Below are positions 4,131 through 38,147 of a DNA stretch of 64,000 nucleotides, piece after piece (positions within the stretch are counted from its first letter, which is position 1; each line of letters begins with the position of its first letter). The position numbers and the translations under genes were made by a program. The stretch spans positions 52,300 through 116,299 of the forward strand of contig JAHJIX010000017.1 of NCBI GenBank assembly GCA_018823045.1, read 5' to 3'. Below the pieces are notes generated by a model. That model was given only the letters and a program-made list of their open reading frames with translations. It was not told the origin of the DNA and did no database searches. This DNA is from Patescibacteria group bacterium. Its GTDB lineage: Bacteria; Patescibacteriota; Patescibacteriia; Magasanikbacterales; UBA922.

Positions 4131-4149
4131 TATACCCTATAGGGGTATA
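4131..4149. promoter_or_regulatory. Palindromic operator TATACCC-N-GGGGTATA (CsoR-type GC-core inverted repeat) upstream of the repressor-efflux operon
   Basis: Sequence tataccctataggggtata lies ~35 bp upstream of the repressor start. It resembles known CsoR operators (ATACCC…GGGTAT). Confidence 0.55.
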
Positions 4150-4232
4150 TGGTGTCAAGTGTGTACACTGAATAAAAACCTACAGAACAAATACTCTCAA
4201 TGTATTTTTGTTGCGGAACGTACATTAAACAC

Positions 4233-4250
4233 ATCATTGCGAGGTGGCGT
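4233..4250. repeat. Half-copy (one arm, CATCATTGCGAGGTGGCGT) of the nested-palindrome repeat family
   Basis: Matches the left arm of the 9212-9306 and 12500-12623 elements. No partner arm is present. Confidence 0.5.
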
Positions 4251-4296
4251 ATTACTCATGTATCAAAAAACAGCCCTATACAGGACTGTTTTTATA

Positions 4297-5445
4297 TTAT
4301 GCTACATGCACCGGAGAGAGATTGTGCATCGTATGCTCTTTTTTATACACTGAGATGATTTCTTCAATCACACGATCCCAGGTATATTCTTTTTCAATGA
4401 TTTTTTTGTATTGTTGTCCTTTTTTGTTCAACACGGCTTGTTCTGTTTGAAGTATTATATCAAGCAAACTTGTCAATTGCTTGATACTTCCTGCACGATA
4501 CAATGCTTCTTTATCTCCGAGTAAATACTCATGCTCCGGAATGTCTGACAATATCATAGGGAGACCATAACTCATCGCTTCAAGCACTACGATTGGTAAT
4601 CCTTCATTAAGTGAAGGGTGCACATAAAGTGATGCATGTGAGAATAATGTATAAAGATCGTTCCCGGATTGAAATCCAGTAAAGATAATACTCTTATCCT
4701 CTGCTGCCAAACGATGCAACTCCTGCACATAGGCATTCGTATGGTATCCATCTCCAACAATAACTAATTGCTTATCTTTTCCTGCCGTTCTTTTTCCCCA
4801 TGCTTTAATTAAATGATGCATTGCTTTATGTGGAATCAGACGACTCACTGCTAAAACATAATTACCTGATTGAATCTTATGTTTTGTAAGGACATCAGTT
4901 TCTTCTTTTTTTGTTGGAATATACACTGCATTTGGAATAAACACCGCATCAGTATCATACACATCACGAGCGTACTGTTGAATCGTTTTAGATACCGCAA
5001 TCGTCATATGTGGAAAATGACATGACGCCCACTCACCAACTTTAAGCATAGTGCGAGCAAACAATCCCCATTTTTCATGTTTTCTATCAATCGAATGGAA
5101 TGTTGAAATCACACGAATCTTTGGGGTAAATACACGAGGAATCCATGCTAAAAGTGATGGCCCAACTCCATGATAATGAATCACATCAACATGTTCTTTC
5201 ATTGCATGAATCGTTGACGTAAAGGTATGAGTCAAGGCATCTAAATGTTTTGTTCGAATACTTTTTGTAAAAATGGTACGGACACCATCAACTTCTGTCG
5301 TTTCTTTACCGGTATACCATAAACGGCTATACACAGTCACATCCATGCCTTCTTTTTTTAAACGCATAGCAAGATCGTGAACGTGTTTTTCAACGCCACC
5401 ATGTACAGCAGGAATACCCTTTTGTCCGATCATTGCAATACGCAT
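4297..5445 (-). CDS. Glycosyltransferase family 4 (GT-B fold, group 1)
   Basis: 382 aa. N-term MRIAMIGQKGIPAVHGGVEKHV; C-terminal domain has the EGLPIVVLEAMSYGLP motif (EX7E-like) typical of GT4 enzymes. Confidence 0.8.
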   Translation of the reverse strand: MRIAMIGQKGIPAVHGGVEKHVHDLAMRLKKEGMDVTVYSRLWYTGKETTEVDGVRTIFTKSIRTKHLDALTHTFTSTIHAMKEHVDVIHYHGVGPSLLAWIPRVFTPKIRVISTFHSIDRKHEKWGLFARTMLKVGEWASCHFPHMTIAVSKTIQQYARDVYDTDAVFIPNAVYIPTKKEETDVLTKHKIQSGNYVLAVSRLIPHKAMHHLIKAWGKRTAGKDKQLVIVGDGYHTNAYVQELHRLAAEDKSIIFTGFQSGNDLYTLFSHASLYVHPSLNEGLPIVVLEAMSYGLPMILSDIPEHEYLLGDKEALYRAGSIKQLTSLLDIILQTEQAVLNKKGQQYKKIIEKEYTWDRVIEEIISVYKKEHTMHNLSPVHVA

Positions 5446-5560
5446 AAAGGATGTTAGTAGTAAATAAAGTGAAATAATACTATGCTATATATAGCACATA
5501 TATATCTATATAACAATAGACTATAACACAACATAATGCTTTTGTCAAGTACTAAAAAGC

Positions 5561-5590
5561 AAAAAACAGCTAACCTTAGCTGTTTTTTGC
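5561..5590 (-). terminator. Bidirectional intrinsic terminator (hairpin AACAGCTAACCTTAGCTGTT flanked by A-run/T-run)
   Basis: Perfect 8-bp stem with U-run on both strands, ~95 nt downstream of the hicB stop. Confidence 0.55.
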
Positions 5591-5685
5591 ATATATTCTT
5601 TATATTATTTCAATCCAGCAGCACGTAAAATGCTTTTTAATGTTCCAATTGGGACATCTTTTGTTTTGCTGTTAAACGAGATGTT

Positions 5686-5919
5686 TTAGGCATACGCCAC
5701 ATCAAGAGAAGAAATAAAACTATTTTCATCACTTATAATCTCTTCTTCATGCTCTTCAACGCTTTCTAAATATAATTTAATAGCATCAGCAGCCATTTCT
5801 CTTGCTTCTTCTAAACTTTTACCATATGTAATACACCCAGGTAAAGCTGGTACTTGTACCGTAAATCCTCCCTCAGGTTCTGGACGAAAAATTAAATTGT
5901 AGTGTAATGTTTTTTTCAT
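5686..5919 (-). CDS. hicB: HicB-family antitoxin (UPF0150), type II TA system
   Basis: 77 aa. FRPEPEGGFTVQVPALPGCITYGKSLEEAREMAADAIKLYLESV matches the HicB N-terminal RNase-H-like fold signature. Confidence 0.75.
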   Translation of the reverse strand: MKKTLHYNLIFRPEPEGGFTVQVPALPGCITYGKSLEEAREMAADAIKLYLESVEEHEEEIISDENSFISSLDVAYA

Positions 5920-6008
5920 ATATATTATTAACGTTATGCAACCATATCTAATACAGCATATATATAGTTAGTATAGCAAAATAACATCAAAAGTCAATGA
6001 AATAATCA

Positions 6009-8003
6009 CTAAATTCCACTACTCAAGCCAATAATATCGTCTTTCCCATCAAAATCAACATCAACCGCTCTTACATCGATTCCCTCTTTTAAAAAGCTCT
6101 CATAGGCCACAAATGGCCCAGAAATACGTGTCCCATCTATACTAAATACGGAAATTTCTGGTTTTTTTCCTTTTCCTGCTCCAACAATAATTTCATCCCA
6201 TCCATCACCATCAACATCTCCTGCAGCTACGTTTATCCCACCAGTATAGCTCGCTTCATAGGGCAACCAGGTATGCTCTAACGTATATGGACGATAGGTA
6301 TATACATGTACTTTCGGAGCGTACCCCACTCCCCCAGCAATCACTAAACGATTATTTTTAACAAAGCTCTTGTTTTTAGCGACTGCCAAAGAGTAGCCAC
6401 CAGTATACCCTTCTCCAAATGGATACCAATCTCTATGTTTTTGTATACCATCATAGGTATAAATACGAATAGGTAGAGTGTCCCCCGCCCCTGGAGTTGC
6501 ATAAACTTCCATATGCCGGTCTTTATTGACGTCTGCAACATGAAACGTTACTTCTCCCTCATAATATGGAAATGGATATTTTCTTTTCATCATCGGACGC
6601 CCATCATGCTTATACGCTCGAAAACTATTTTTTGTTGCCACAAAATAATCCCGCTTTCCATCTCCATTTAAATCAATATAGGCAATACGGTCTCCCCCAC
6701 GTTCTTTTTCATCAAAAATAAAGAACCCATTTCGTACACGAGAACCATCTGGCCGAAAAAACCGAACAAAACTCCCATTTGGGAAAATAATATCTTTTAA
6801 GGTATCAAATGTTTTTAAGAGTATACGACTATCATAATAATTTAAAAATATTTCAGAAACAATATCACCACTATTTGCAAGCGGATCTTGCGTGCCATGA
6901 ATTAACTCATACTCTCCATCAAGCTCTACATGTTGTTTTTGATTGGTACTGTTTAATACCACAAGCCCATTTTCAAATGGACGTGTCCAAATGTCATAGA
7001 CATATTCTTTTACACCACTTTTAGAACTGGAGTCATCAATTGGTGCACCTAAATCAATATCATACTCATCATACCACCACGTTTGGCCATGATCTTGATC
7101 GCCGTGGTCAAAAGATGAATAGGCATTTTCAAGCAATGCGCTCCCTAAACCAAAACGCATTTGCTGATAATTATATTGATTACCTGTATTATGTGTGTTG
7201 GTATTTAATATGGTTATGTATGGCTGATCATTTTGCTTCTGATTTTTTACCAGATTATTCATAATAGTAGGCCAGGTACCATTTCCTTCCCATGGTGTCG
7301 GGAATGTTTCAAACATACGTCCATTCACATATGGCTGAAGCGCATCATGAGAAGAACCATTCATGACAATGTATCGTGTATCTAATTGTTCTTGTGCGTA
7401 TTTTAAAAAGAATGTTGTTCGTTTTAACCATTCATTATCAATCGTCAAAGCACTATCTCTTTGCCCATTTTCATCTAAATCAATATCACCATTATTTGCC
7501 CAAGAAATATTATGAGAAACCATATCAAAAAAGACCCCATCCATATCGATTTTTTCTATCATGTAGGTATTAATAAACCCAACAAGATAGCGTGACCAAT
7601 CTTCACTCATATTTATTCCTTTAAGACTTGGCCAAATATATATAGGAGACCCAGCACTACTGCGCAACCACCAATTCTCTTGCACTGTTAAATACCGAAA
7701 TATAGGATCTTGCCCCCAATACGCAGTATTATAACTTTGTATTGGAATATACGCCAAAATAATAATTTCTCTATTTTTTGCTCGAATTTGTGCAACAACA
7801 GACGGATGTGCCTTCATTTGTGCCGGCGTTAAAATAAGCAAATCATATTTTGCCATTTTTGTCGTAAATGATGGTGATGACTGCAATTCATCTAAGTAAT
7901 AATTCGCAATCAAGGGATGATCATCTGATACAGCCTTTGCAGTACTCCCCCAAAGAAAGCACAAAGCAATACTGATAACAGAAATAATTATTTTTTTATA
8001 CAT
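6009..8003 (-). CDS. Secreted protein: N-terminal TIM-barrel glycoside-hydrolase-like domain fused to C-terminal FG-GAP/VCBS-type repeats
   Basis: 664 aa. Signal peptide (MYKKIIISVISIALCFLWGSTAKA). The N-terminal region resembles putative glycosyl-hydrolase-like (GHL/GH114-type) domains. The C-terminus has repeated DxDGDGxxD loops (DLNGDGKRDYFVA, DVDGDGWDEIIVGAG, DVDFDGKDDIIG) typical of FG-GAP beta-propeller blades. Confidence 0.5.
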   Translation of the reverse strand: MYKKIIISVISIALCFLWGSTAKAVSDDHPLIANYYLDELQSSPSFTTKMAKYDLLILTPAQMKAHPSVVAQIRAKNREIIILAYIPIQSYNTAYWGQDPIFRYLTVQENWWLRSSAGSPIYIWPSLKGINMSEDWSRYLVGFINTYMIEKIDMDGVFFDMVSHNISWANNGDIDLDENGQRDSALTIDNEWLKRTTFFLKYAQEQLDTRYIVMNGSSHDALQPYVNGRMFETFPTPWEGNGTWPTIMNNLVKNQKQNDQPYITILNTNTHNTGNQYNYQQMRFGLGSALLENAYSSFDHGDQDHGQTWWYDEYDIDLGAPIDDSSSKSGVKEYVYDIWTRPFENGLVVLNSTNQKQHVELDGEYELIHGTQDPLANSGDIVSEIFLNYYDSRILLKTFDTLKDIIFPNGSFVRFFRPDGSRVRNGFFIFDEKERGGDRIAYIDLNGDGKRDYFVATKNSFRAYKHDGRPMMKRKYPFPYYEGEVTFHVADVNKDRHMEVYATPGAGDTLPIRIYTYDGIQKHRDWYPFGEGYTGGYSLAVAKNKSFVKNNRLVIAGGVGYAPKVHVYTYRPYTLEHTWLPYEASYTGGINVAAGDVDGDGWDEIIVGAGKGKKPEISVFSIDGTRISGPFVAYESFLKEGIDVRAVDVDFDGKDDIIGLSSGI

Positions 8004-9187
8004 ACTCTCTTATATACCACTTCTAATGCATGCAAATAGTTTTCTTTATTATATTTCTTTTTTGTTTCTTTATAGATACTATTTTGCATGATTTGTTTTT
8101 CTTTTGACGATCGACTATACCATAATTTTACCTTTTCTGCAAGAGCATGACTATCTCCTGCTTCACATAATAGTTCTTTTGAAACGAGCTCAGAAATTCC
8201 ACCAATGTCAGCTCCAATAACGATTTTTCCTTTTGCATGTGCTTCTAAAATACTCAATGGACAATTTTCATACCAAATTGATGGCACAACGAGTAATGAT
8301 GCCTTGTCTATATACTGTTCTAATTGTTTCCCTGTTTGCCAACCAACTAACGATACATTCTCTAATTGTTCTTTTTGTATATATGCTTTTATTTTTTTTT
8401 CTTCAGGACCAGTACCAACAATTATATAAGAAATATCTGGTGTTTCTTTTGCTGCAGCGAGCAATACATGAATTCCTTTTTCTTTTGACAATCGTCCAAC
8501 ATAAGCAACATACTTTTTTTCTTTTGTTGCCAACTCCCCAATATCAACAGCATTTGGAATGACATTTATATTTTCTTCAGACAAACCACCTGTTACAGAA
8601 ATATCTTTCATAAACTGACTAGGCGCAATATATGCATCAATCACTTGATGCCATTTTTTCCATACTCTTACATAAGCCTCAATCATTGCAAAAAAACTTT
8701 GCCCCAAAGACTCCATACAATTCCCCAATAAACAACGGTAATATTTTTTACCAATCATCTGTTTTTCAATAGCCCCATGGTGAAACAAACGATAATTTGG
8801 AGAAATCATTTTATAATCATGCAAAGTCATCACTGATGGAATGCACTTTTCTTTTACTACATCAAGTAATGAAAAAGATAGTTGATGATAAATATTATGA
8901 ACATGAACAACATCAGGCTGCACTTGCTCAATATAGGCTGCAAATTTTTTCTTGGCTTCTTTATTATAAATACTTTTCCACCCTGCAGAAATTTTTCCAA
9001 AAAATCCTAAAGAAGCATAATCAATATATGCACTAAACTGTTTTTCATCAATAGTATTTTTTGGGTGATGCATACCAAAAATAAACACCTCATGCCCGGC
9101 ATTCTCTAATAATTCTTTTGTATCAAAAAGTACGCGCTCTGCTCCACCACGAATGTACCAATATTTATTAACAAGTAATATTTTCAT
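7988..9187 (-). CDS. Glycosyltransferase family 4
   Basis: 399 aa. MKILLVNKYWYIRGGAERVL N-terminus and C-terminal E…EAHAKGKIVIGADIGG block typical of GT4/group 1 glycosyltransferases. Confidence 0.75.
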   Translation of the reverse strand: MKILLVNKYWYIRGGAERVLFDTKELLENAGHEVFIFGMHHPKNTIDEKQFSAYIDYASLGFFGKISAGWKSIYNKEAKKKFAAYIEQVQPDVVHVHNIYHQLSFSLLDVVKEKCIPSVMTLHDYKMISPNYRLFHHGAIEKQMIGKKYYRCLLGNCMESLGQSFFAMIEAYVRVWKKWHQVIDAYIAPSQFMKDISVTGGLSEENINVIPNAVDIGELATKEKKYVAYVGRLSKEKGIHVLLAAAKETPDISYIIVGTGPEEKKIKAYIQKEQLENVSLVGWQTGKQLEQYIDKASLLVVPSIWYENCPLSILEAHAKGKIVIGADIGGISELVSKELLCEAGDSHALAEKVKLWYSRSSKEKQIMQNSIYKETKKKYNKENYLHALEVVYKRVCIKK

Positions 9188-9211
9188 AACATATGTTCTT
9201 TCAACCTACGT

Positions 9212-9306
9212 ACGTCATTGCGAGGTGGCGATAGCACAGCGCGGCAATCCCATGGTTTTTGCACGGAAGAATGAGATTGCTTCGTCGTGCCTCCTCGCAA
9301 TGACGT
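9212..9306. repeat. Nested-palindrome intergenic repeat element (copy B): outer arms ACGTCATTGCGAGG/CCTCGCAATGACGT, inner arms GCGGCAATCCC/GATTGCTTCG
   Basis: Direct reading: the 14-bp inverted termini are perfect and the inner inverted pair is nested. The element occupies the gap between a GT4 gene and the radical-SAM gene. Confidence 0.85.
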
Positions 9307-9334
9307 AAACTGTAACCATTCGCCTCCATATTAA

Positions 9335-10330
9335 TTACAAATCACGCATGCCTGTAATTTTATTCTTCACAATCCAGCACGCTACTTTATGTGGGTTCTT
9401 TTTAATCGCTGTTCTTGCAGTACAAATCATCCAGGCAGGTTGCCCAATGGTGCGTACTTGTTTTCGTGATTCATTTGCTTTTTTCCCTTGCCATAAACTA
9501 TCCCAATATGCATGCTCACGCAAATTGCCCATTGGAAAATTATGCACCACAGATGGATACACCACTCCATCTGGATCAAGATAAAAGAATTTTGTTCCTG
9601 GATCATTATTTAACACCTGTTTTTTTTCTATACTAAATTTGTAGAGCCCGTGTGCAAAAAATGCACGAACCCACTTTTTCGGATTCCAGCTAGAGAGCTC
9701 ACTATTCATGATATGCAAATACTGTTTTTTTAACTCTTTTTTATCTGGATTATTATCAATATCGATGCCAAAATAGTGCTCTGAACTTTGCGCAAATGCA
9801 TGGGTAAACTGAATGCCTCGTTTTTTACTCTCATCATATACCTTACCGAAGTCTTGAATATTTTCTGGTAAAATAGTAAATGCCAAGCGTAAATTTTTCA
9901 TGCCTAATTTTTGAAGACGCTCAATCGTATCCATGTCTTTATTCCACGCATCTGGAATACGACGAATTTTTTCATGCATGTCTTTATACCCATCCACAGA
10001 AATTGCAACACCAATATCTGGCATAATCTTTAAAATTTCTTTCATGCGTTTTTCGATCAAATCAGGCATAAACCCGTTTGATGAAATAACAATACGCGCT
10101 TTAGGGCAACGCTCATGCACAACACGAACAATCTCTACAATATCTTTGCGTAAAAATGGTTCACCACCAGAGATATTAATATCTCTAAGTGATTGTGGTA
10201 ATTTTTTATATTCTGCCACTGGTAATTCTGGAGAATTTTTAATTTTCCAAATATTACACATGGTACAGCGAGAATTACAATTATACGTTGTTCCGATCAC
10301 ACAATCAATTGGTTGTTCTACTTTTTTCAT
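9335..10330 (-). CDS. Radical SAM domain protein
   Basis: 331 aa. CxxxCxxC cluster near the N-terminus (YNCNSRCTMCNIW) plus a glycine-rich SAM motif (NISGGEPFL). Confidence 0.7.
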   Translation of the reverse strand: MKKVEQPIDCVIGTTYNCNSRCTMCNIWKIKNSPELPVAEYKKLPQSLRDINISGGEPFLRKDIVEIVRVVHERCPKARIVISSNGFMPDLIEKRMKEILKIMPDIGVAISVDGYKDMHEKIRRIPDAWNKDMDTIERLQKLGMKNLRLAFTILPENIQDFGKVYDESKKRGIQFTHAFAQSSEHYFGIDIDNNPDKKELKKQYLHIMNSELSSWNPKKWVRAFFAHGLYKFSIEKKQVLNNDPGTKFFYLDPDGVVYPSVVHNFPMGNLREHAYWDSLWQGKKANESRKQVRTIGQPAWMICTARTAIKKNPHKVACWIVKNKITGMRDL

Positions 10331-10441
10331 AATCAGACATTATTTGACAAAATTGCTTTTTTATGGTATATTTTACTTACTTTTTGACGCCTCGATTTAT
10401 CGAGGAGGTTCGTCCCCCGCTTCATGCGAGGGACAGTTTTT

Positions 10442-10852
10442 TTATAGAAATTGTTTAATATACACTTCTACTATTTTTTTAAATTCATCTATTGGAACCA
10501 CACCGTCCTTATTTAACAATCTTTTACTACTTATTGTTCTTCCTTGAGTTATATTTATAACTCTTTTTTTATCACCAACACTTACAGGCACCTGATACCA
10601 AACAACTGGATTCTTTATTTGAGTAGTTAGTGGCAAAACAAAACACATATCAGCATTATATTTTTTTACAATCAATACAGGTCGATGAAAATCTTCATGT
10701 TTACCATCTACTTCCAATCCAATGTTCTTTCCTAATGCTGCCCACCAAACTTGCCCTTCATAAAAATAAATGTCTCTTTTCTTTTTTTTGATGTGATATC
10801 TTATTTTCTTTTTTGTCCAATCAATAAATGATTCTGCAATATTCATAATCAT
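10442..10852 (-). CDS. MazF/PemK-family type II toxin (mRNA interferase)-like protein with ~40-aa N-terminal extension
   Basis: 136 aa. EGQVWWAALGKNIGLEVDGKHEDFHRPVLIVKKYNADMCFVLPLTTQ matches the MazF/PemK signature (G-V-W…G-E-GK-RP-L-V…V-PLT). Confidence 0.55.
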   Translation of the reverse strand: MIMNIAESFIDWTKKKIRYHIKKKKRDIYFYEGQVWWAALGKNIGLEVDGKHEDFHRPVLIVKKYNADMCFVLPLTTQIKNPVVWYQVPVSVGDKKRVINITQGRTISSKRLLNKDGVVPIDEFKKIVEVYIKQFL

Positions 10853-10883
10853 AATATAGTGTTAATCATATAATATGTGCGAA

Positions 10884-10944
10884 TTACGAATGTGACTACG
10901 TCACTACGAATAGATTCGTATATTCGTACTATTCGTCATTCGCA
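10884..10944. promoter_or_regulatory. Array of 6-7 ACGAAT/ATTCGT hexamer repeats (direct and inverted) in the 5' region of the MazF-like gene
   Basis: ttacgaat…ctacgaatagattcgtatattcgtactattcgtcattcg; includes the palindrome CGAATAGATTCG. It resembles an operator/iteron cluster. Confidence 0.45.
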
Positions 10945-10948
10945 TCCC

Positions 10949-12451: not shown

Positions 12452-12499
12452 AGTGACATCATAGATGTCATCTTTAATTCTTATTTACAGACAATACTC

Positions 12500-12623
12500 A
12501 CGTCATTGCGAGGTGGCGTGAGCACACCGCGGCAATCCCGTTGTTAAAGAAAAACAATTGTTTTAAGACATAAACAAAGGGATTGCTGCGCCCCGTTTTA
12601 CAAGACGGAGCTCGCAATGACGT
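12500..12623. repeat. Nested-palindrome intergenic repeat element (copy C)
   Basis: ACGTCATTGCGAGGTGGCGTGAGCACACCGCGGCAATCCC…GGGATTGCTGCGCC…GCTCGCAATGACGT. It has the same outer and inner inverted pairs as copy B, with a longer AT-rich central loop. Confidence 0.85.
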
Positions 12624-12885: not shown

Positions 12886-14805
12886 TTATTGATTGTCGCC
12901 GTTGTGGCTACAACCAACAGCGCCTGAAGGCAGCGGTGCGCAGGAATAATCCCCGTTCACCGTGTGGCATATGCACGTGGAAAAGTCCCAAGTGGACACG
13001 CTACACTCGCCTTGCTCGCTCCAGTGCCGGCCGTCAGAAACGGCCTCGTTACGAGAAGCACCTCGGACGGGCCACCACTCAAGGTAGGCCTGGTTACCGG
13101 GGGCGCTCGCGGACGCCGTGATAGTCACTGCAAATGAATTGCAATTGCCAGCTTGAGCGATCTGGACGCAGAGGTCCAATACACAGCTCTCACCGTCAGC
13201 GCAGTCAGCATCGTCCATGCAGGTATCCGCGGGAGGCGGAACCTCACAGAGATTACTGACGCAAACTTCGCCATCACCCTGGCAGGGGTTCTGCGGGTCG
13301 CAGTAGCCGGGGATGGGTAGATTTGCGCAGACACCGCTGTTGCAGGTGTCGTTGGTGCTCGGATCGGAGTCATCACAGTCCGCGTCGGTGACGCAGACTG
13401 CACAACCCTCGTTGATCTCACCGTCACAGTCGTTGTCGGCCATGTCATCACAGAGCTCAGGAGCTCCTGGGTAGACACTCGAGTTTCCGTCTTGGCAATC
13501 GACGTCGGCAGTAAAGCCGTCGCCGTCCAAGTCTTCCTCGCCGGGAGTGAAATCACACGCGCCGGGGGCGTCTTCAACGCCGTCACCGTCACAATCGCTG
13601 TCACAGGCGTTGCCGAGGCCGTCGAGGTCGAGGTCTTCTTGACCGGGGTTGGACACGTTGGGGCAGTTGTCGAGGACGTCGGGCACGCCGTCGCCGTCGA
13701 GATCGCTCTCACAAGCGTCGCCGATGCCATCGCCGTCCTGGTCGCACTGGACCGGATCCGTTGTCGGATCATCGTCGCAGTCGGAGGGGGCGTTGGCTAC
13801 GTCAGGGCAGTTGTCTTCGTCGTTGAGGACGTCATCACCGTCGAGGTCGCCGTCGCAAACGTCGCCGTCGCCGTCACCGTCCGTGTCGAGCTGGTTACGG
13901 TTGGCGAGGATACGACAGTTGTCGTCATCATCGTTCCCAGCGATGCCATCGTGGCCATCGTCAGGGATGCGGTCGTTGTCGTCGTCATCGTCACAGGCGT
14001 CGCCGAACTCGTCGTCGTCGCTGTTCAACTGGTCGACGTTGTGGATATCGGGGCAGTTGTCCACGTCGTTGTCGTGGTCATCGCCGTCACGATCGGTGTC
14101 ACAGACATCGCCGAACTCGTCGCCGTCCATGTTCTCTTGGTTGGGGTTCGCGGTGTCGGGGCAGTTGTCGATGCCATCGCCGATGCCATCGCCGTCACGA
14201 TCGTCCTCACAGACGTCGCCAGTGCCGTCACCGTCGGTGTCAATCTGGTCGGCGTTGGGGACGAGGCGGCAATTGTCGTCGTCTTCGTTTCCGTCGACGC
14301 CGTCATCACCGAAGTCAAGGACGCCGTCGTTGTCGTCATCGTCGTCGCAAGCGTCGCCGAGATCGTCGTCGTCGGTGTTCGCTTGCATCGGGTTGGGCAC
14401 GTCGGGGCAGTTGTCGTCATCGTTGCCGAGGGCGTCGTTATCGCGATCGCTGTCGCACTCGTCGCCGATGCCATCGCTGTCGATGTCGATCTGCCGAACG
14501 CACATGTTCTCGACGCAGAAGATCGGAGCAGCGAACTTGGCGCCATCGGGCCCCACCATGATGGCGGGGATGTCGATGCAGTCGTTGGCGTCGGCGCAGG
14601 CCACGGGGGCCTCGTCGACGAGCGCGGGCTCAGCGGGGGGGTTGGCGGTGCGGGGGCAGTTGTCAGCCCCGATGGGGATGCCGTCGGGGGTCAAGGCCGC
14701 CTCAGAGGCGGACGTGGAAGAGGGACCCTGGCCGGTCGCGCTACACGCGACGGCGAAGATCGAGAAGAGAAACAGGGCGATCATGCGCTGCATGACTTTC
14801 TCCAT
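12886..14805 (-). CDS. Thrombospondin type-3 (TSP3) repeat calcium-binding lipoprotein, Asp-rich
   Basis: 639 aa. Signal peptide + lipobox (LFSIFAVAC|S). More than 10 tandem repeats fit the TSP3 consensus DNCPxxxNxxQxDxDxDGxGDxCDxDxDNDG (e.g. [63 protein letters not shown]). Cys-rich C-terminal domain. ~65% GC. Confidence 0.8.
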
Positions 14806-29260: not shown

Positions 29261-29264
29261 ATCT

Positions 29265-29813: not shown

Positions 29814-29889
29814 AATAGTGCACAGCCTCCTATTGACTTAATGGCGAGATATAGTGTATACTTCCTGCGTCTTATCTAAGAAAAATTGT

Positions 29890-30105
29890 ATGCCAAAAAT
29901 AAAAACACACAAGGCAACAGCAAAGCGATTTCGCGCAACCAAGCCAAAAGACAAAGCTAAAGTTAAATTCATGCACGCAACTGGTGGACGTGGACACTTT
30001 AATGGAAAAGAGAGTGGCAATACGGGAACAGCGAAAAGAACTGATGCTAGCGCAGTACGCGCAGATGTTTCAACTATTAAACGATCTATGCCGTACGCTG
30101 CATAA
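29890..30105 (+). CDS. rpmI: 50S ribosomal protein L35
   Basis: MPKIKTHKATAKRFRATKPKDKAKVKFMHATGG… The start is taken at the internal Met of the ORF-track frame. Confidence 0.8.
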   Translation: MPKIKTHKATAKRFRATKPKDKAKVKFMHATGGRGHFNGKESGNTGTAKRTDASAVRADVSTIKRSMPYAA

Positions 30106-30119
30106 TTAATGAAGAATAT

Positions 30120-30464
30120 ATGCCTAGAGTAAAACGTGGTTTAGGACACTTAAAGAAACGCCGTTCACTCATGAAACGAGTAAAAGGATTTCGTGGTGGC
30201 CTCAGAAAATTACAAAAACAAGCAAAAACAGCTGATACACGTGCCGGAATGCATGCATACCGTGATCGTCGTGTAAAAAAACGTCTCTTCCGCCGTCTAT
30301 GGCAAGTACGTATCAATGCAGCTATACGTAACTACGATATGAGTTACAGTGCTTTCATGGGTAAACTCAAAGAAAAACAAGTTGGTTTAAACAGAAAAAT
30401 GCTTTCAGAAGTAGCAGCATCAAAACCAGAAGTGTTTAAAAAAATTATAGAGTTTGTCAAATAA
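30120..30464 (+). CDS. rplT: 50S ribosomal protein L20
   Basis: MPRVKRGLGHLKKRRSLMKRVKGFRGG…RDRRVKKRLFRRLWQVRINAA. Canonical L20. Confidence 0.9.
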   Translation: MPRVKRGLGHLKKRRSLMKRVKGFRGGLRKLQKQAKTADTRAGMHAYRDRRVKKRLFRRLWQVRINAAIRNYDMSYSAFMGKLKEKQVGLNRKMLSEVAASKPEVFKKIIEFVK

Positions 30465-30684
30465 TTATCAAAAAAACTCTCTATATTGATATATAATTAG
30501 AGAGTTTTTTTATACACTAAAAAAATAGACCACCTTTTTAACATATTGGATATAACAGATCATTGTTTATATAATACATATAATTATCCACAACACATAT
30601 ATTAAACAAAGGGGTCCCCTACTTGACAAAATGCTCATAAACTGTTATACTGGGGCATCATCAAAAATGGAAATGGTCAATATC

Positions 30685-30935
30685 ATGTTCGCACATGAGC
30701 AGGAGCACCCCCTCCTTTGCTCCTTTGCTCTGTGTGAACATCATGTTGATCAATACAATCAAACAAAGGTCTCGAGAATGTTCGCACATGAGCAGGAGCA
30801 CCCCCTCCTTTGCTCCTTTGCTCTGTGTGAACATTCTCGAGATCTATAACAATAAATGCCCACTGTATGTTCGTACATGAGCAGGAGCACCCCCTCCTTT
30901 GCTCCTTTGCTCTGTACGAACATACAGTGGGTTTT
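30685..30935 (+). repeat. Three tandem copies of a 57-bp hairpin-forming element (ATGTTCGCACATGAGCAGGAGCACCCCCTCCTTTGCTCCTTTGCTCTGTGTGAACAT). The third is extended and followed by T7, acting as the rplT operon terminator.
   Basis: Copies at 30685-30741, 30778-30834, 30867-30923, with spacers of 36 and 32 bp bounded by TCTCGAGA. The last copy sits in the stem CCCACTGTATGTTCG…CGAACATACAGTGGG + TTTTTTT. Confidence 0.8.
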
Positions 30936-31222
30936 TTTATACCCATAAAAACCTTGACAATTCTATCATATTCTAGTATCATATGCTTGTAATTTGTTAG
31001 CAAAATATATGGGACTTCGAAAGAAAAACAACCAAAAAAGATACCAACAACGATTGATTGCAAAAGCAAAAAGAAATATCAAAAAATTGAACCGTCTTGC
31101 AAAAGCAAAAACTCCCGGTCAAACACTTCACGATACAATGCATAGAAGAAAAGAGGCATAATCACTTTGCAAAAAAATAAATATATGATATACTCTTATC
31201 TATAATAAGATAAGAGGTTACT

Positions 31223-31296
31223 GGATCGGTAGTTCAACTGGTTAGAGCACCGCCCTGTCACGGCGGAAGTTGCGGGTTCGAGTCCCGTCCGGTCCG
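31223..31296 (+). tRNA. tRNA-Asp (anticodon GUC)
   Basis: Cloverleaf: acceptor GGATCGG/CCGGTCC; D-arm GTTCAACTGGTTAGAGC; anticodon loop CTGTCAC; T-arm GCGGGTTCGAGTCCCGT; discriminator G. CCA is not encoded. Confidence 0.85.
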
Positions 31297-32847
31297 CTCA
31301 ACGGAAGGCAAAGCACCCGAAAGGGTGTTTTTTGCTTTTGTTAAGCTATTTTCTGAAGTTCTAAAGCTTGTATTACGTTTCATTATCATTTCGAACGGTT
31401 TTCTATACTCTATAACTAATTTCTTATCGATAAGCTGACAGTTCGAAAGTAAATATCCAAGTAGCTCCCTTTTCTCTTCATCATTAGCCATACGGTATAA
31501 TTTAGAAGCCTTATGAGCTAATTCTAATATACCTGAACCATAACGATAATAATCAATATCAGCTTGCGTATAATTTGAAATACGACTATCTAAATCTGTT
31601 ACCTGCTCCGTATACTCATTAAATTTTCTATTATAAAAATCCTCAGTAATATTATTATCTAACTTATCCTCATAAAGTCTATCGAGACGTGTCATTAGTT
31701 TTATCTTTCTATCCTCTAATCGTTTACGTTCTCTATCCGTTGTATCACGTTTAATATCCAATGAATCTTTTAATGCTTCGGTAATATAGTCAACGGTATC
31801 TTTTGGCAATTCAATATCTTTTAATGCTTGCTCTATCTGCTCGTTAATAGCATTCTCATTAACTGGCTTTTGTGAACACTCACTCTTATATTTTGTACAA
31901 CGATAATAAACATACTCCTTACCTGAACTCTTTGTTTTCTTATCTCCCGTAACAGTTCTATGACACTCTCCACACTCAAGTAACCCTTTAAATGTAAAGT
32001 GCCTAGTCCCCCATTTGGCTTGCTTTCCTCTATTTTCTCGACTATCCAGTATATCTTGTACATTCTTCCATAATACTTTATTGATAATCGGCTCATGTAC
32101 TCCTACATGAATTTTATCTTTCCAAATGAAATCACCGTAATAAATAGGATTACGTAAAATCCTTTGAACAGAGCTTTTACTTATTTTTTTTAGTTTAGAG
32201 CTTCTCGGAAAATTTTCAGGTATAACAATACCCTCCTTATACAATTCATCAATAAGACTCTTCAAAGAATATCTACCAGTAGCAAATCTCTCAAACATAG
32301 CTATTACTAAATCTCTATTCAATTCATCTACTACAGGACCCGCCTTATCGGCTATCTTCCCCATCTTGTAACCTAACGGGGGCATACTACAAGGATATAT
32401 TCCCTGCTCTGCTTTTTGTTTGAGTCCTTTCTTTACTTCTTCACTCAAATTATCTACATAGTTTTTTGCCATCAAGACCTTAATTCCATGCATGAACTTT
32501 TGATGAGAAGAGGCTTCTTTTCCAATAACTTCATTTTCTTTAACCAAAAAAACCGTAACATCAAGCTCGTCTATCAAAACGTAATCTTTAAAGTTACGGT
32601 ATAGTCTATCCGTCTTTTCGACAAGAATTGTATTTACATCTTTGTGTGACTTTACATAGTCCACCATTGCCCCAAAATTGCTCCTACCGGAACTTTTAGC
32701 CGTCTCATCGTCCTCAAACTCCTGTACTATACTAAAGCCATTCTGACGTGCAAATTCTTTAAGTAACTTCCTCTGAGCAGGTATTGAATACCCCTCTTGT
32801 TTTTGTTCACGAGAAGATACACGTACGTAAATGACGGCTTTTTTCAT
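31258..32847 (-). CDS. Large serine recombinase (resolvase domain + recombinase domain + zinc ribbon)
   Basis: 529 aa. Begins [12 protein letters not shown]…GYSIPAQ (catalytic Ser motif) and has a Cys-rich zinc ribbon (CGECHRTV…[11 protein letters not shown]). The ORF's last ~13 codons overlap tRNA-Asp (31258-31296), so the real stop may differ. Confidence 0.75.
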
Positions 32848-33023
32848 ACTTTAGTCTTCTCTAAAAAATCAGCAAAATCTTCTGTGGAAATCCTAAACTC
32901 CTTACCTAACTTATTAGCTTTTAGCTTACCCGCTTCTATATATCTATAAACTGTCATCTTTGAAATTCTTAATTTGCTTGCTATTTCTTCAACTAAATAA
33001 AAATCTTTATCTATTTCTTTCAT
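32844..33023 (-). CDS. Small helix-turn-helix DNA-binding protein (excisionase/AlpA-like), overlapping recombinase start by 4 nt
   Basis: Manual translation: [59 protein letters not shown] (59 aa). HTH is EIASKLRISKMTVYRYIEAG. Below the ORF-track size cut-off. Confidence 0.55.
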   Translation of the reverse strand: MKEIDKDFYLVEEIASKLRISKMTVYRYIEAGKLKANKLGKEFRISTEDFADFLEKTKV

Positions 33024-33031
33024 AAACTAAA

Positions 33032-33955
33032 TTAAGTAGATAAAACTTTCTCAATTTTTTTTGCTATAGCTCGTATTACAGGTACAGCAACACTATTCCC
33101 AAATTGTTTATAACACTGTACATTACTAACAGTTAATACAAAATCTTTGGGAAATCCTTGTAGTCGAGAAGCTTCTCTTGGAGTAATCTTTCGAGGATTT
33201 TTATTTTTTTGTCTAATCAAAATTTCAGAACCATCTTTATAATACCTAGCTGACATAGTACTTGTATATGCAGAATTGGCATCAAATAGACTATATCCAA
33301 ATCCATTACCCTTTAATTTATGAGCTTCCTTTCTTCTTTTATGACCTGCCCACAATTTATCTGATATTGTATATTTTTCATCAACTTTTTCTTCTAAAAT
33401 ATCTCCTAATTTAACTTTTTTGTATGAAGGAGTTGGAAAAACAAATTCGTTATAATTTTTTACTTTCTTTTTATTAAATGCAATTATATATATTCTCTCT
33501 CTATTTTGAGGTACACCGAAGTCTTTAGCATTAAATATCTTATCAAAAACATGATAATCTAGTTTTTCTAAACTTTCTTTTACTATCTTAAAGGTATTCC
33601 CCTTATCATGTGATTTAAACCCTTTAACATTTTCTAAAAAAACTAGCTCAGGTTTATGATAAGCAATTATTTTTTCAATATAAAAAAACAATGTCCCTCT
33701 AGTATCTTGAAAGCCCTTTTTAAGACCAGCATTAGAAAAAGGCTGACAAGGAAATCCCGCAAGAATTATATTATGTTTAGGTATATCAGCAACCTTAATT
33801 TTAGTTATATCTCCATCGGGACACTCACCAAAGTTATCTTTATATGTTTGTTGAGAAAACTTATCCCACTCAGAAGTAAATACACAGTTATAACCAATTT
33901 CATCAAATGGAATTCTAATTCCACCAATGCCTGCAAATAAATCAATAAATTTCAT
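33032..33955 (-). CDS. DNA (cytosine-5)-methyltransferase
   Basis: Motif I DLFAGIGG, motif IV GFPCQPFS, motif VI ENVKG, motif VIII QNRERIYII. The start is taken at the Met of MKFIDLFAGIGG (the ORF-track frame extends to 34012). Confidence 0.8.
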   Translation of the reverse strand: MKFIDLFAGIGGIRIPFDEIGYNCVFTSEWDKFSQQTYKDNFGECPDGDITKIKVADIPKHNIILAGFPCQPFSNAGLKKGFQDTRGTLFFYIEKIIAYHKPELVFLENVKGFKSHDKGNTFKIVKESLEKLDYHVFDKIFNAKDFGVPQNRERIYIIAFNKKKVKNYNEFVFPTPSYKKVKLGDILEEKVDEKYTISDKLWAGHKRRKEAHKLKGNGFGYSLFDANSAYTSTMSARYYKDGSEILIRQKNKNPRKITPREASRLQGFPKDFVLTVSNVQCYKQFGNSVAVPVIRAIAKKIEKVLST

Positions 33956-33959
33956 ATTT

Positions 33960-34847
33960 TTATTTCCAATAATCAAGATATTTAGGAATTTCTTCAAAGA
34001 AATATTCTTCAAAACTAATTATATTTTTGCAGTCCAACAAACTGTCACTATCTGCCAATTCTTTTGAAGTCACAATAACTATATTATGCATACCCATTTC
34101 TTTTGCTTTACTACCCGCAATATGAGTATCAACCGTTAATAAATGAATTTCAGGTATTTTTGTACGTTCAATTTCTTCTGCTACTTCCTGCCATCTTTCT
34201 CTAAGACTTGTTTTCATCGTCCCTATAATAGTTTTGTTTCTTCTTCGCTTGAATTCTTCTATACTTGGTAAAACAGAATCAACTTTTTTACCAAGTCCCA
34301 CAGACTCAAACACCTTTCTTCCAACTTTTCCTTGAGAATCAAATGGATAATCTAAAATATCATATATTTTATATATAATAGCTTCAAATGTTCTACCTGA
34401 CCTCGATCTTCGTGAATTAGTATTACTTAAAGAAAGCATATATACATATGGAGCAACTCGTCCAGCATATTCTCCACATACACTATAGATAGCAACCTTT
34501 AATTCTTCACCCGTCTTATTAACAATCTCACTAGTAACTAAAAAGTCTAAAATTTTCTTAGGTGTTTCAATTCTTTTATGTAAATCCTTTAAAAGTGTTG
34601 CATTAAACTCTGCCTCCTCTTTCAAAAATAAATTATAAGCACGCTCTCTTACCTCTAATATTACCTTAGACACATCTTTATGCTCTATGATCTCTTTTGA
34701 ATAATTACCTTCATCAAAAACCTGAGCAACAAATTCATCAGATGTTCTTATAGATTCTTTTCTTGTCTTTTTTATTAAATTAGCAAATATTTCCTTCTCT
34801 GATTCAGGAACATCAATCAAACTCCTAATATCCTTATTTACATCCAT
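33960..34847 (-). CDS. Putative type II restriction endonuclease partner of the m5C MTase
   Basis: 295-aa ORF immediately upstream and co-directional with the MTase (gap of a few nt). No recognisable family motif by eye. The call rests on the R-M context only. Confidence 0.4.
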   Translation of the reverse strand: MDVNKDIRSLIDVPESEKEIFANLIKKTRKESIRTSDEFVAQVFDEGNYSKEIIEHKDVSKVILEVRERAYNLFLKEEAEFNATLLKDLHKRIETPKKILDFLVTSEIVNKTGEELKVAIYSVCGEYAGRVAPYVYMLSLSNTNSRRSRSGRTFEAIIYKIYDILDYPFDSQGKVGRKVFESVGLGKKVDSVLPSIEEFKRRRNKTIIGTMKTSLRERWQEVAEEIERTKIPEIHLLTVDTHIAGSKAKEMGMHNIVIVTSKELADSDSLLDCKNIISFEEYFFEEIPKYLDYWK

Positions 34848-34927
34848 ACTTATATTTATAAAACTTATTGATACAATATTATAATATCTACTATATCATA
34901 CTTTACAATGGTTAACAATTAGTCCTA

Positions 34928-36016
34928 TCAATCCATCCTTTGAGCTACAAATTTTAAGAGCTCTTCCTTACTCAAAGAAGCAACATTTACTCTAGTAAGG
35001 TTATTAAATGAAATTTCTTGTATTATTCTTGCCTGTTTTAGTGAGTCAATATGTCCATACCCATAACTTCCAAAAGTGGTACCAACATTTTCATGACCCA
35101 AATTTTGACTAAAAGCTTTCTTTTGTATTTCAGTAAGTGGTAATTTAGATATTTCACTCACCAACAAATTTCTAAAGGTATGAGGATGAAAATATGTTAC
35201 TCCTGCCTGCTTAAATCGCTTTTCAAATATCTTTCTCAAAGAAGTAGTACTCTTCCAAAACGTAGCTTCCACTTCCCCATTACTATAAAATCCTAAATTT
35301 TTTTTACCTACTTCTGTTTTTGTTGCAGGGAAAATAGGATCAACAGGTTTAAAACCTTTCTGCACCTCAAGATATTCTACCCATTCCATAAAATACTTTT
35401 GTGCTTTTTTGTATGGAATAGGTACAAAAACGGAAGTTATCCTTTTACTGAACTTTGTTTTTACACCCAACTTAGGATTTTGATCGATAATCATAGTCTT
35501 TTTATCAAAACACTGCAAAGACAAACTAGCTAATGCTGAGATACGTATCCCCGTTAATAAATTAAGAGAAATAAGTGCTTTATCTCGCATTTCAACTTCT
35601 GTATTACCCTCAATATGCTCTATCACCGTTTTTACTTGATCAATTGATGGAAAACTAGTATTAGTGCTTTGTGTAGCTATTCTATTTTCTGCCTTTGTGA
35701 GATTAAGATATTCTACATCTTGCTCATGTACCTTTGATTTATATCCATCTTGTTTAGACAACCACACAAAAAAAGATTTCAAATATCTTATATTATTATA
35801 GCAATAAGATAAACTCACATTACCTTCACCATGTTTCTTTTTTTTTGATTTCAACCAACTTTTGAAATCAATAGCTTTTTGTTTATTAAATAAAGCAAAA
35901 TCATCTTGAACTGAGAACTCTTCCCAAAGCCAAATTCCTTTCTCATAACATCTAATCGATTTTGTTGAATACTGCTTTGCATTTTCAAGATATACATAAA
36001 AACTTCTTATTGTCAA
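34928..36016 (-). CDS. Tyrosine-type site-specific recombinase/integrase
   Basis: 362 aa. Box I R (ALISLNLLTGIRISALASL), HxxR (HPHTFRNLLVS) and the catalytic Tyr region (GHENVGTTFGSYGY). Confidence 0.75.
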   Translation of the reverse strand: MTIRSFYVYLENAKQYSTKSIRCYEKGIWLWEEFSVQDDFALFNKQKAIDFKSWLKSKKKKHGEGNVSLSYCYNNIRYLKSFFVWLSKQDGYKSKVHEQDVEYLNLTKAENRIATQSTNTSFPSIDQVKTVIEHIEGNTEVEMRDKALISLNLLTGIRISALASLSLQCFDKKTMIIDQNPKLGVKTKFSKRITSVFVPIPYKKAQKYFMEWVEYLEVQKGFKPVDPIFPATKTEVGKKNLGFYSNGEVEATFWKSTTSLRKIFEKRFKQAGVTYFHPHTFRNLLVSEISKLPLTEIQKKAFSQNLGHENVGTTFGSYGYGHIDSLKQARIIQEISFNNLTRVNVASLSKEELLKFVAQRMD

Positions 36017-36093
36017 TATACATTATACTTTATTTTGACAAATACGACAGTCTGATATAAGCTATTACTATAATTAATAAAAAAACGAATAAT

Positions 36094-36432
36094 ATGGCTA
36101 CAATAACAATGAAACTAGAACCAAAGCCTTTTGATGCTATAAAATCTAAAAAAAAACAAATTGAACTACGCCTATACGATGATAAAAGAAAAAACATTAA
36201 TATTGGAGACATTATTGAATTTAAAAGAGAACCTGAACGAACAATATCCATTAAAACGCGGGTTGTCGCACTACTCAGATATGAAAATTTCTCAAAATTA
36301 TTTGAAGACTTTGAACCTAGTATATTTGGAGGAAATAATAAGCAAGAATTACTTGATGGTGTTACACGATTTTATTCAAAAGAAAAACAAAATGAATACG
36401 GCATACTAGGCATAAAAATAGAATTACTCTAA
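36094..36432 (+). CDS. ASCH (PUA-like) domain protein
   Basis: 112 aa. MKLEPKPFDAIKSKKKQIELRLYDDKRKNINIGDIIEF is an ASCH beta-barrel signature. Confidence 0.5.
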   Translation: MATITMKLEPKPFDAIKSKKKQIELRLYDDKRKNINIGDIIEFKREPERTISIKTRVVALLRYENFSKLFEDFEPSIFGGNNKQELLDGVTRFYSKEKQNEYGILGIKIELL

Positions 36433-36493
36433 AAAAAGAAAAAAGGGGTCCGATGAAAGACCTCTTTTAATTTATCTGGGAAGAATCCCCGCG

Positions 36494-36844
36494 CTATACA
36501 ACCTCTTCAAGTTGAAACACCAGAACTCCTAACCTCTCCTTGTTTGGTGGAAAAATCTTCCTTATGTTACGCAACTGTTGCTCCGCACTACGATACGGGT
36601 TTATTTTTTGTACATCCTCGTTAGCCAACATCTCTCTAAAGTTGTTGTACTTGCTCACACGCACGACGCGTCTATCGCAAGAACGCTGTTTACAAAGGAA
36701 GCGTACAGTATCCCCTCTCTGAATGCGCAGCAAACTACTGTATGCGACACGAACCTCCACAGTTTTTGTTCCTTCGACGATCATGTCAAAGTATTGTTTA
36801 TAGATCTGGAGAGTCCGGATCCGTTTTTTTTTCGCCATTTTCAC
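36494..36844 (-). CDS. ASCH (PUA-like) domain protein
   Basis: 116 aa. IYKQYFDMIVEGTKTVEVRVAYSSLLRIQRGDTVRF. Confidence 0.5.
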   Translation of the reverse strand: MKMAKKKRIRTLQIYKQYFDMIVEGTKTVEVRVAYSSLLRIQRGDTVRFLCKQRSCDRRVVRVSKYNNFREMLANEDVQKINPYRSAEQQLRNIRKIFPPNKERLGVLVFQLEEVV

Positions 36845-37935
36845 TCTTCCTTTCGATAGGCTTCAAGAAGCCTCATTATCTCGGTGTAGGTATAACATCT
36901 GAACATGTGCCTCGGATGACTCAAAAACTGTTGAACCAACCAAATCATCTTTGACACATAGTCAGGATGTTCTTCACGGAATTTACTCATATCTAAGAGC
37001 CAATTAGGCACATCAAACATACTACCATCATTATCTCTTATGAGAGATTTAGATAACTTAGCTCCTGTCCCCGTAATGACCTGAGGAGTAAAAAACCTCA
37101 TTGGTGTATTGACTGAGGTATAACCTAATGCACCAAGTGCCCAATCAACGGGCTGTGTGCTCATAGTCCAGTCCCCGCCTTTTACCATAACACCAAGTGT
37201 ACCATTTTCTTGACTGTAAACAGCCTCTTTTATTACATTCCTATATAATGTATTCAAATCAAGATAGGTACCATCATCACCATCGACAGAAACCATTTTT
37301 TCATAAAATCTTCCATCTCTAGCACGACACCTAAACAATACCTTGTCTTTCCCTGTATAAATAATTTTTGTATGCTCCCCCCTTTTTTGAGCATAAAAAT
37401 CATCATCAGAGTTAGGTAATCGCACTCTCAAAATACCATTTGAAGGTGCTACACACCAACGGATAACTTCTTGAAATTGCAAAGACTTGATGAATTGATA
37501 GCGAAATGAAGGCATACTTTGCTGATCTTTATAAGTAGACCAACTATATGAGATACCCACAATTTTTGCTAATTCATCAAAAAAATCTAAATAGTGCACA
37601 GATAATAAATCATGTAATTCCAAAGAGGATAATACATGACCATAGGCGCGCTGGAATTCGGTACCATCCTTCCCTTGTGTAATATCATAAGGAGCATTAT
37701 CAAGTGCTCCAAAGCAAACCTCACAAGGGATATCAAACTTTTCTTGGATCATTCCGGCGAGTACAAAACTTGTCGTCTGGACGAGATATGTACCAATGTG
37801 CGGGATACCATTAATCTGAGTACCCACTGAAAATACTACGCGCTCAGGATTTGAAATAGCAATACGAGCACCAATGAGATCAATTGCACAGTTCAAGCTA
37901 TTAGCCAAAACGGTATTTGGAGAGTGGATGAGCAT
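36841..37935 (-). CDS. Class I aminoacyl-tRNA-synthetase-like protein, catalytic domain only (HIGH-like PHIGT and KMSKS-like KLSKS motifs)
   Basis: 364 aa. GTQINGIPHIGTYLV near the N-terminus and TGTGAKLSKSLIRDNDG ~240 aa later. This spacing is typical of class I LysRS (LysK)/GluQRS-type Rossmann domains. No anticodon-binding domain. Confidence 0.45.
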   Translation of the reverse strand: MLIHSPNTVLANSLNCAIDLIGARIAISNPERVVFSVGTQINGIPHIGTYLVQTTSFVLAGMIQEKFDIPCEVCFGALDNAPYDITQGKDGTEFQRAYGHVLSSLELHDLLSVHYLDFFDELAKIVGISYSWSTYKDQQSMPSFRYQFIKSLQFQEVIRWCVAPSNGILRVRLPNSDDDFYAQKRGEHTKIIYTGKDKVLFRCRARDGRFYEKMVSVDGDDGTYLDLNTLYRNVIKEAVYSQENGTLGVMVKGGDWTMSTQPVDWALGALGYTSVNTPMRFFTPQVITGTGAKLSKSLIRDNDGSMFDVPNWLLDMSKFREEHPDYVSKMIWLVQQFLSHPRHMFRCYTYTEIMRLLEAYRKEE

Positions 37936-38124
37936 TGTTTTTCCCTTTGTTGTAGTGAACGAAACCTTTTTATTTAGATACCAGATCTAAATAACTATTA
38001 TAAAAAGGTTAGCAGATTTCCCTACTTTTGTCAACCATTTTAAAGAAACCGGAATTTTTATAATCACAGTCAATTTTGACCCAATCTAAAGTTCTAAAAT
38101 CGTCCCGTAAGCCCCGCTAATGGA

Positions 38125-38147
38125 ATATACCCCTAAATGGGGTATAT
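38125..38147. promoter_or_regulatory. Second CsoR-type operator-like palindrome ATATACCCC-TAAAT-GGGGTATAT
   Basis: Perfect 9-bp arms. Same core as the operator at 4131-4149. Located in the 383-bp intergenic region between 37935 and 38319. Confidence 0.5.

Follow-up and report, generated by a model that had tools for sequence, protein, structure and literature searches.

A probable CsoR-type operator palindrome and its distant second copy in a Patescibacteria genome: regulon or look-alike?

When a repressor's putative operator recurs as a perfect palindrome 34 kb away from the repressor gene, do the two sites form a regulon? We addressed this question for a stretch of 64,000 nucleotides from a Patescibacteria group bacterium (contig JAHJIX010000017.1, positions 52,300 to 116,299), referred to here as the window. 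In it, the palindrome TATACCCTATAGGGGTATA (site 1, 4131-4149) precedes a gene for a repressor of the CsoR/RcnR family, and the palindrome ATATACCCCTAAATGGGGTATAT (site 2, 38125-38147) lies in an intergenic gap at the end of an inserted island. A preliminary description of this DNA had placed both palindromes at exactly these positions, treated them as copies of one operator and proposed a small metal-responsive regulon linking the RND efflux pump encoded behind the repressor with an Nramp-like transporter and other membrane genes. Our analysis leans, by somewhat more than an even chance, towards a different joint reading, in which site 1 is an autoregulatory operator and site 2 is not a working operator of a regulon but a terminator-like hairpin at the island junction.

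A search of the window with the pattern put forward in the preliminary description, ATACCC-N3-7-GGGTAT, matched only the two sites. In 100 dinucleotide shuffles the expectation was 0.01 matches, and no shuffle had as many as two. When the half-site ATACCC was allowed spacers of 1-11 nt, the window again had two perfect matches and 30 shuffles had none. Relaxed searches remained at background, both for boxes with one mismatch (1 found, 0.77 expected from shuffles) and for boxes with two (22 found, 18.6 expected). The frequency of the box pair relative to the shuffles therefore shows that the pair is real and that base composition is not its explanation. The left 9-nt half-site of site 1, ATATACCCC, matches each arm of site 2 exactly. 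Thus, the view of the two palindromes as like copies stands for the half-sites, which they have in common, but not for the spacing, a point that the preliminary description missed: ATACCC and GGGTAT are 5 nt apart in site 1 (TAC-N9-GTA) and 7 nt apart in site 2 (TAC-N11-GTA), a difference of 2 bp.

Site 1 occupies the spacer of a sigma-70 promoter on the minus strand (4129-4158) and overlaps its -10 element. This promoter agrees with the consensus in 12 of 12 positions, with the -35 TTGACA at 4158-4153, an 18-nt spacer and the -10 TATAAT at 4134-4129; its minus strand reads TTGACA-cc-ATATACCCCTATAGGG-TATAAT, with the palindrome itself reading TATACCCCTATAGGGTATA. The open reading frame (ORF) of the repressor begins 27 nt beyond the inferred transcription start. 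In Streptomyces, type-2 CsoR operators have the consensus ATATACCCCTNAGGGGTATAT, of the form 5'-TAC-N9-GTA-3', and the TAC/GTA dyad is needed for binding (PMC3902906). Site 1 comes close to this consensus in sequence and shows its geometry (TAC-CCCTATAGG-GTA) as well as the promoter overlap typical of these operators, whereas site 2, with its N11 spacing, does not have this geometry and overlaps only promoter-like matches of background level. The type-2 operator of Streptomyces lividans csoR/copZA (PMC3902906) has the same half-sites, N9 spacing and interrupted G/C tract as site 1 and, like it, lies at the promoter of the repressor gene itself, in a position for autoregulation. The systems differ in what is controlled, copZA in S. 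lividans and an adaptor with an RND pump here, and in the repressor, as S. lividans CsoR has Cu(I) ligands that the window repressor does not have; the N11 spacing of site 2 also sets it apart from the S. lividans operator.

To place site 1 among related operators, we read the upstream DNA of six relatives of the repressor (L014, L015, L016, L017, L074 and L076). All six have a G-tract palindrome directly upstream of the csoR-like gene, either within promoter-like sequence or overlapping its -35; in L074, the -35 is clear and the -10 is not. The boxes are TATACCCATAGGGGTATA in L014, where a gene for a 601-aa adaptor follows and repeats the layout of repressor plus roughly 600-aa adaptor, TTGACAcccTATGCCCCTATAGGGTATAAT in L017, a member of the Gracilibacteria, TTGACACCCCCAGGGGGTGTactgTATAAT in L016 and TTGACACCCCCCCTAGGTGTactgTATACT in L015, both with a thioredoxin gene next, and TTGACACCCCATGGGGGTAT in L074 and TTGATACCTATGGGGGTAT...TATAAT in L076. 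In all seven operators, that is site 1 and those of the six relatives, the distance from xAC to GTx is 8 or 9, with the spacing in L076 set by hand. As judged from sequence, the boxes amount to a phylogenetic footprint. In L017, the promoter and operator are near-identical to those of the window (4954-4984 of L017 and 4128-4158 of the window, 93.5% identical over 31 nt) even though the repressor proteins are only about 36% identical, which suggests either strong constraint on the control region or its transfer.

The promoter-embedded box, its N9 geometry and the relatives all speak for the earlier assignment of site 1 as the autoregulated operator of the repressor gene, and we consider it very probable that site 1 is a CsoR-type operator. 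By occupying the G-tract pseudopalindrome, which fills the spacer of the consensus promoter and overlaps its -10, the repressor, presumably a tetramer like others of its family, would keep RNA polymerase out. The operon of repressor, membrane-fusion adaptor and RND pump would thereby be negatively autoregulated through site 1. Here, and for the terminator activity and origin of site 2 discussed below, binding and function are what we infer from the arrangement of the sequence.

The genes behind site 1 bear out the repressor-HlyD-RND operon of the preliminary description. The repressor gene (3841-4095, minus strand) encodes 84 residues, which match PF02583 over residues 4-82 with 53.2 bits (gathering cut-off 22.8), and is the only PF02583 gene in the window. 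Modelled as a monomer, the protein is all-alpha (predicted local distance difference test, pLDDT, 87.9), with helices at residues 3-27, 33-61 and 68-83, as in the three-helix protomer of the CsoR/RcnR family. Its top matches in the PDB are FrmR, CsoR, CstR and InrS, with template modelling (TM) scores of 0.6-0.73 and, as the protein is short and helical, weak Foldseek E-values; FrmR is the best structural match (5lbm, TM 0.73). In sequence, the repressor is a near-orphan, with only 25 matches at E < 1e-3 among 1.84 billion representatives. The adaptor gene (2072-3841, minus strand) overlaps the stop codon of the repressor gene and encodes an RND membrane-fusion protein of the HlyD type (127 bits to TIGR01730), 589 aa long from the first ATG; the public record starts it at 3829, which gives 585 aa. 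The third gene (1-2070, minus strand) is the 5' part of an RND (ACR_tran) transporter gene, which continues beyond the window start and encodes 1055 aa at full length.

What would the repressor sense? An alignment to the solved CsoR structures 3AAI and 4M1P and to 19 relatives shows that all three ligand positions are substituted: the X cysteine by Tyr33, the Y histidine by Ile58 and the Z cysteine by Ser62. The repressor thus has neither the x-C-H-C set of Cu(I) sensors (a cysteine on alpha2, followed by a histidine and a cysteine four residues apart) nor the two cysteines of the CstR type at X and Z. The H-C-H-H set of RcnR/InrS and the Pro2 plus Cys35 set of FrmR are also missing, and of N-terminal candidates only Cys2 and His4 are present. 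Cys2, in the N-terminal MCLH, is the sole cysteine of the protein. Consistent with this, NCBIfam scores are 21-35 bits overall, compared to equivalog cut-offs of 133-175, and 21-23 bits for the RcnR/InrS and FrmR types, compared to cut-offs of 133-138. The suspicion in the preliminary description that the metal ligands are incomplete was therefore correct.

The nearest relatives (P0002, P0004, P0006, P0013 and others) have kept the X and Z cysteines and have no histidine. They are of the thiol/persulfide (redox) type rather than metal sensors, which fits their thioredoxin neighbours; as two-cysteine members of the CsoR family, they adjoin thioredoxin or efflux adaptor genes. CstR and TTHA1953 of Thermus (PMC10318464) are two-cysteine sensors of the same kind, with operators within the promoter. 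These proteins keep both cysteines, whereas the window repressor has both replaced, by Tyr33 and Ser62, and a thiol switch can therefore not operate in it. This leaves the N-terminus. In RcnR and FrmR, N-terminal residues, His3 and Pro2 respectively, are active in sensing. The window repressor has its remaining candidates, Cys2 and His4, in this same region, but the partner residues of FrmR and RcnR (Cys35, His60, His64) are absent from it. Since the sensing residues are all missing and the nearest relatives are of the thiol type, metal sensing is unsupported, and with it the "metal-responsive" part of the earlier proposal.

The repressor thus fits none of the described copper, nickel, persulfide or formaldehyde sensor classes. 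Most likely, it either holds a very strong promoter in homeostatic check or answers some other signal, possibly via Cys2/His4. The former, plain homeostatic autorepression, is the simplest reading; sensing of a new kind through the N-terminus is a speculative possibility. We give very little credence to the most far-reaching version of the latter, a new sensory type of CsoR protein that has abandoned the inter-helix site, uses Cys2/His4 (a free 1,2-aminothiol after removal of the methionine) to sense an electrophile or metal, binds both N9 and N11 boxes and couples the RND pump to an acquired LysRS-like/ASCH module beside site 2. Taken together, site 1 and its operon are a known kind of system, unusual in having a repressor without sensor residues.

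Site 2 is a perfect 9-5-9 palindrome, ATATACCCC-TAAAT-GGGGTATAT, within a 383-bp gap between two divergent genes. At the RNA level it extends, on the plus strand, to a hairpin of 15 pairs including two G.U pairs (38119-38158), with a folding energy of -18.6 kcal/mol and a U-rich tail; terminator-like features are seen on this strand only, which is also the strand of a tRNA-Asp gene upstream. In its stability, the hairpin is similar to terminators of the window, namely that of tRNA-Asp (-15.9 kcal/mol) and the one at 5559-5590 (-19.6 kcal/mol), and unlike site 1 (-8.1 kcal/mol). A stable stem-loop with a U-rich tract on one strand is the hallmark of Rho-independent terminators; the differences to these are that the hairpin has only four G-C pairs, that its lower stem is A/U-rich and that no upstream transcription unit has been identified.

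The position of site 2 follows from the surrounding genes. The tRNA-Asp gene (31223-31297, plus strand) adjoins the proximal junction of an inserted island of about 6.8 kb (31258-37935, minus strand), which is missing from a syntenic relative (L004-L006); there, tRNA-Asp is followed directly by a terminator with a 5-nt loop and then by the Nramp region. The island encodes a large serine recombinase (31258-32847; 529 aa), whose ORF has its 3' end inside the tRNA-Asp gene, an HTH_17 protein, a restriction-modification pair of Dcm methylase and EcoRII-C endonuclease, a tyrosine integrase (34928-36016), two ASCH proteins and, as its last gene, a protein resembling lysyl-tRNA synthetase (LysRS) at 36841-37935. 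Site 2 lies at the distal junction, between this last island gene and the first gene of the core genome. Across the region 31223-38100, no direct repeats of at least 10 nt were detected at the island ends.

On these grounds, the explanation of site 2 that we rank first, at a little below an even chance, is a hairpin, or terminator-like element, that forms on the plus strand where the island ends. It would act as a stable RNA hairpin at the distal end of the mobile island, and could be the displaced terminator of tRNA-Asp, parted from the tRNA by the island. On this reading, the resemblance to the operator box would have arisen by chance from an AT-flanked CCCC/GGGG stem or would, at most, provide weak secondary binding.

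The idea of a displaced terminator is attractive because strand and position fit. The left flank of site 2 was tried as a displaced tRNA-Asp 3' end and rejected (local alignment score 18, background 25-28); the site-2 end and the tRNA-Asp end share no k-mers of at least 10 nt, and a relaxed ARAGORN search for a tRNA remnant gave 24 vs 29, with matches as frequent in shuffled sequence. Several observations weigh against a terminator-like hairpin. A displaced terminator would have come without a significant att repeat or tRNA remnant. No gene or known RNA of the plus strand ends at site 2: Rfam gave only noise for 37900-38350, and no small plus-strand ORF ending there was convincing. Of perfect hairpins of at least 9 bp with T tails, the window has only three, and the stems of the remaining two are unrelated. 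Further, chance would hardly produce a second perfect match of 9+9 half-site positions (the 6+6 core alone is expected 0.01 times per window), and two metagenomic loci, described below, have N11 boxes in promoters.

These last points favour the strongest alternative, to which we assign about half the likelihood of the hairpin: site 2 would be a second operator of the same repressor, in a two-promoter regulon of the RND pump and either the LysRS-like/ASCH module or the 123-aa protein encoded downstream. The identity of the site-2 arms to the left half-site of site 1, for which the chance expectation is 0.01, speaks for this reading. Both arms also contain TATATT, a -10-like hexamer, and the only promoter-like match that overlaps site 2 (TTCAGA-16-TAAAAT, 38173-38146, minus strand) would place the box at the transcription start. 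Yet this match has only 9 of 12 consensus positions, and such matches are at background (12 found, 7.0 +/- 3.0 expected). There is no -35 beside site 2, and both neighbouring genes have better promoter candidates more than 100 nt away (about 125-170 nt), at 38273-38301 (TTGTCA-17-TATAGT) and 38036-38031 (TTGACA). Moreover, the N11 spacing makes site 2 an outlier, 2 bp longer than in seven of seven operators of the subfamily, and spacing is critical in the TTHA1953 operator, where one added spacer nucleotide weakened binding about 10-fold and the removal of one about 15-fold (PMC10318464). Homologues of the neighbours on either side have no box upstream, neither the LysRS-like/ASCH genes in four loci (L010-L013) nor the homologue of the 123-aa gene (L009). 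Finally, a DNA operator would have no use for a stem extended by G.U pairs or for a U tail on one side only.

The preliminary description was right in placing site 2 between an aminoacyl-tRNA-synthetase-like gene and that of a small membrane protein, and in recognizing an Nramp-like transporter nearby, but the regulon built on this arrangement is not supported. The Nramp gene (38756-40153, minus strand; 290 bits) is convergent with the 123-aa gene (38319-38690, plus strand), which lies between it and site 2, and has its promoter on the far side, above 40153; site 2 can therefore not control it. The site is, in addition, promoterless, 2 bp longer in spacing, hairpin-like and without counterparts beside its neighbours' homologues, so that we found neither a second site placed to control a gene nor an association conserved in relatives. 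We also considered ATGCCCCTTGAAGGGTAT at 40683-40700, a relative of the box with one mismatch located 530 nt upstream of the Nramp start, and rejected it as an Nramp operator: it is inside the coding region of a 171-aa gene (40518-41033), and the number of such matches is at chance level.

In a scan of metagenomes for the N11 palindrome ATATACCCC-N5-GGGGTATAT, we obtained 55 stretches with 37 distinct sequences. One of the 55 was next to a PF02583 gene, a figure that is only indicative since the scan had no matched N9 control, and 7 of the 37 distinct sequences had T tails. The two loci mentioned above are L029, where a canonical csoR gene (C-H-C) is preceded by two boxes, one of N11 spacing within the promoter spacer and, directly downstream, one of N9 spacing, and L041, where an N11 box is part of a thioredoxin promoter. 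N11 boxes can therefore be operators, at least with longer G runs, and L029 in particular supports a second operator by showing both spacings before one gene. The palindrome recurs in many metagenome contigs (loci L019, L020, L026, L030, L035, L036, L044, L045, L048, L058 and L072, and also L024, L032, L049 and L061), as part of a conserved hairpin of greater length, GTTACAT-ATATACCCC...GGGGGTATAT-GTAAC, or in arrays with several copies on one contig. Such recurrent hairpins and arrays are probably unrelated repeat or origin-like elements.

The promoter-embedded N11 boxes next to a canonical csoR and a thioredoxin gene are also compatible with a further, improbable explanation, namely that site 2 is the operator of another CsoR-family paralogue from some other part of the genome, or that it came with the island from its donor as a relic. 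The half-site ATACCCC/GGGGTAT is family-wide, from Streptomyces to Patescibacteria, and equals the Streptomyces consensus (PMC3902906), and the location at an island junction would suit a relic. Against this, the window has a single PF02583 gene, site 2 has no promoter context, and no target gene of the copper or thioredoxin type adjoins it. Marginally less probable still is a recombination site, for example a core for the tyrosine integrase, with 8-bp arms flanking an overlap of 7 bp, or a portion of a serine-recombinase att site. The location in the junction, 340 bp from the last island gene to the first core gene, the flanking direct repeat described below and an inverted-repeat geometry compatible with tyrosine-recombinase cores would speak for this, but the tRNA-Asp end has no matching core or repeat of at least 10 nt, perfect palindromy is not expected of hybrid attL/attR sites and the likeness to a tRNA 3' end is at background. 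The rest of the probability goes to explanations other than these four.

The direct repeat in question is GC-rich, GTCCCGnnnGCCCCGC, and flanks site 2 in the otherwise AT-rich gap (38102-38117 and 38177-38192, 13 of 16 positions identical); it resembles tRNA 3' ends with a score not above background.

Among the genes beside site 2, the LysRS-like gene (36841-37935, minus strand) encodes 364 aa with a catalytic domain like that of class I lysyl-tRNA synthetases. Its model (pLDDT 92) has the class I LysRS 1IRX as best PDB match, and both the HIGH (PHIGT) and KMSKS (KLSKS) motifs are present. The model contains no anticodon-binding domain, and the protein has no match in Pfam or NCBIfam. In Patescibacteria, the gene is always accompanied by one or two genes for ASCH-domain proteins (36094-37935 in the window; L010-L013), and in many actinomycetes the two are fused into proteins of about 480-500 aa. 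Together they resemble a conserved module of two parts, as yet uncharacterised, that may act on RNA. A comparison of the two 364-aa proteins showed that they are not paralogous. The 123-aa protein is membrane-anchored; its gene has its own promoter (38273-38301) and belongs to the core genome, as a homologue is found beside Nramp in L009. The closest counterparts of the Nramp protein belong to Candidatus Magasanikbacteria.

Two further regions of the window deserve mention. Between rplT and tRNA-Asp, positions 30672-30937 consist of three tandem units of about 90 nt, each a long inverted repeat around the core GAGCAGGAGCACCCCCTCCTTTGCTCCTTTGCTC, with no real match in Rfam. In the NCBI assembly of this organism, the region is shorter by about 126 nt; either the copy number varies or the repeats were collapsed in assembly. 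Positions 12886-14805 have a GC content of 0.49-0.55, compared to about 0.36 elsewhere. We rejected rRNA as an explanation, since this stretch encodes a 639-aa protein of thrombospondin type 3 repeats, whose repeat codons cause the shift.

These findings overturn no current knowledge. They do show that finding an operator half-site repeated exactly does not suffice for calling a regulon and that spacing, promoter context and RNA features have to agree. Regulation in Patescibacteria (also known as the candidate phyla radiation, CPR) is almost unstudied, and our data confirm the presence of near-consensus sigma-70 promoters in this group. The class of promoter-embedded operators described here, common to genomes of Magasanikbacteria-like organisms, Gracilibacteria and Shapirobacteria, provides a testable cis-element, and the repressor, having lost the sensor cysteines, offers a natural test case for how members of the CsoR family function when the usual switch is lacking.

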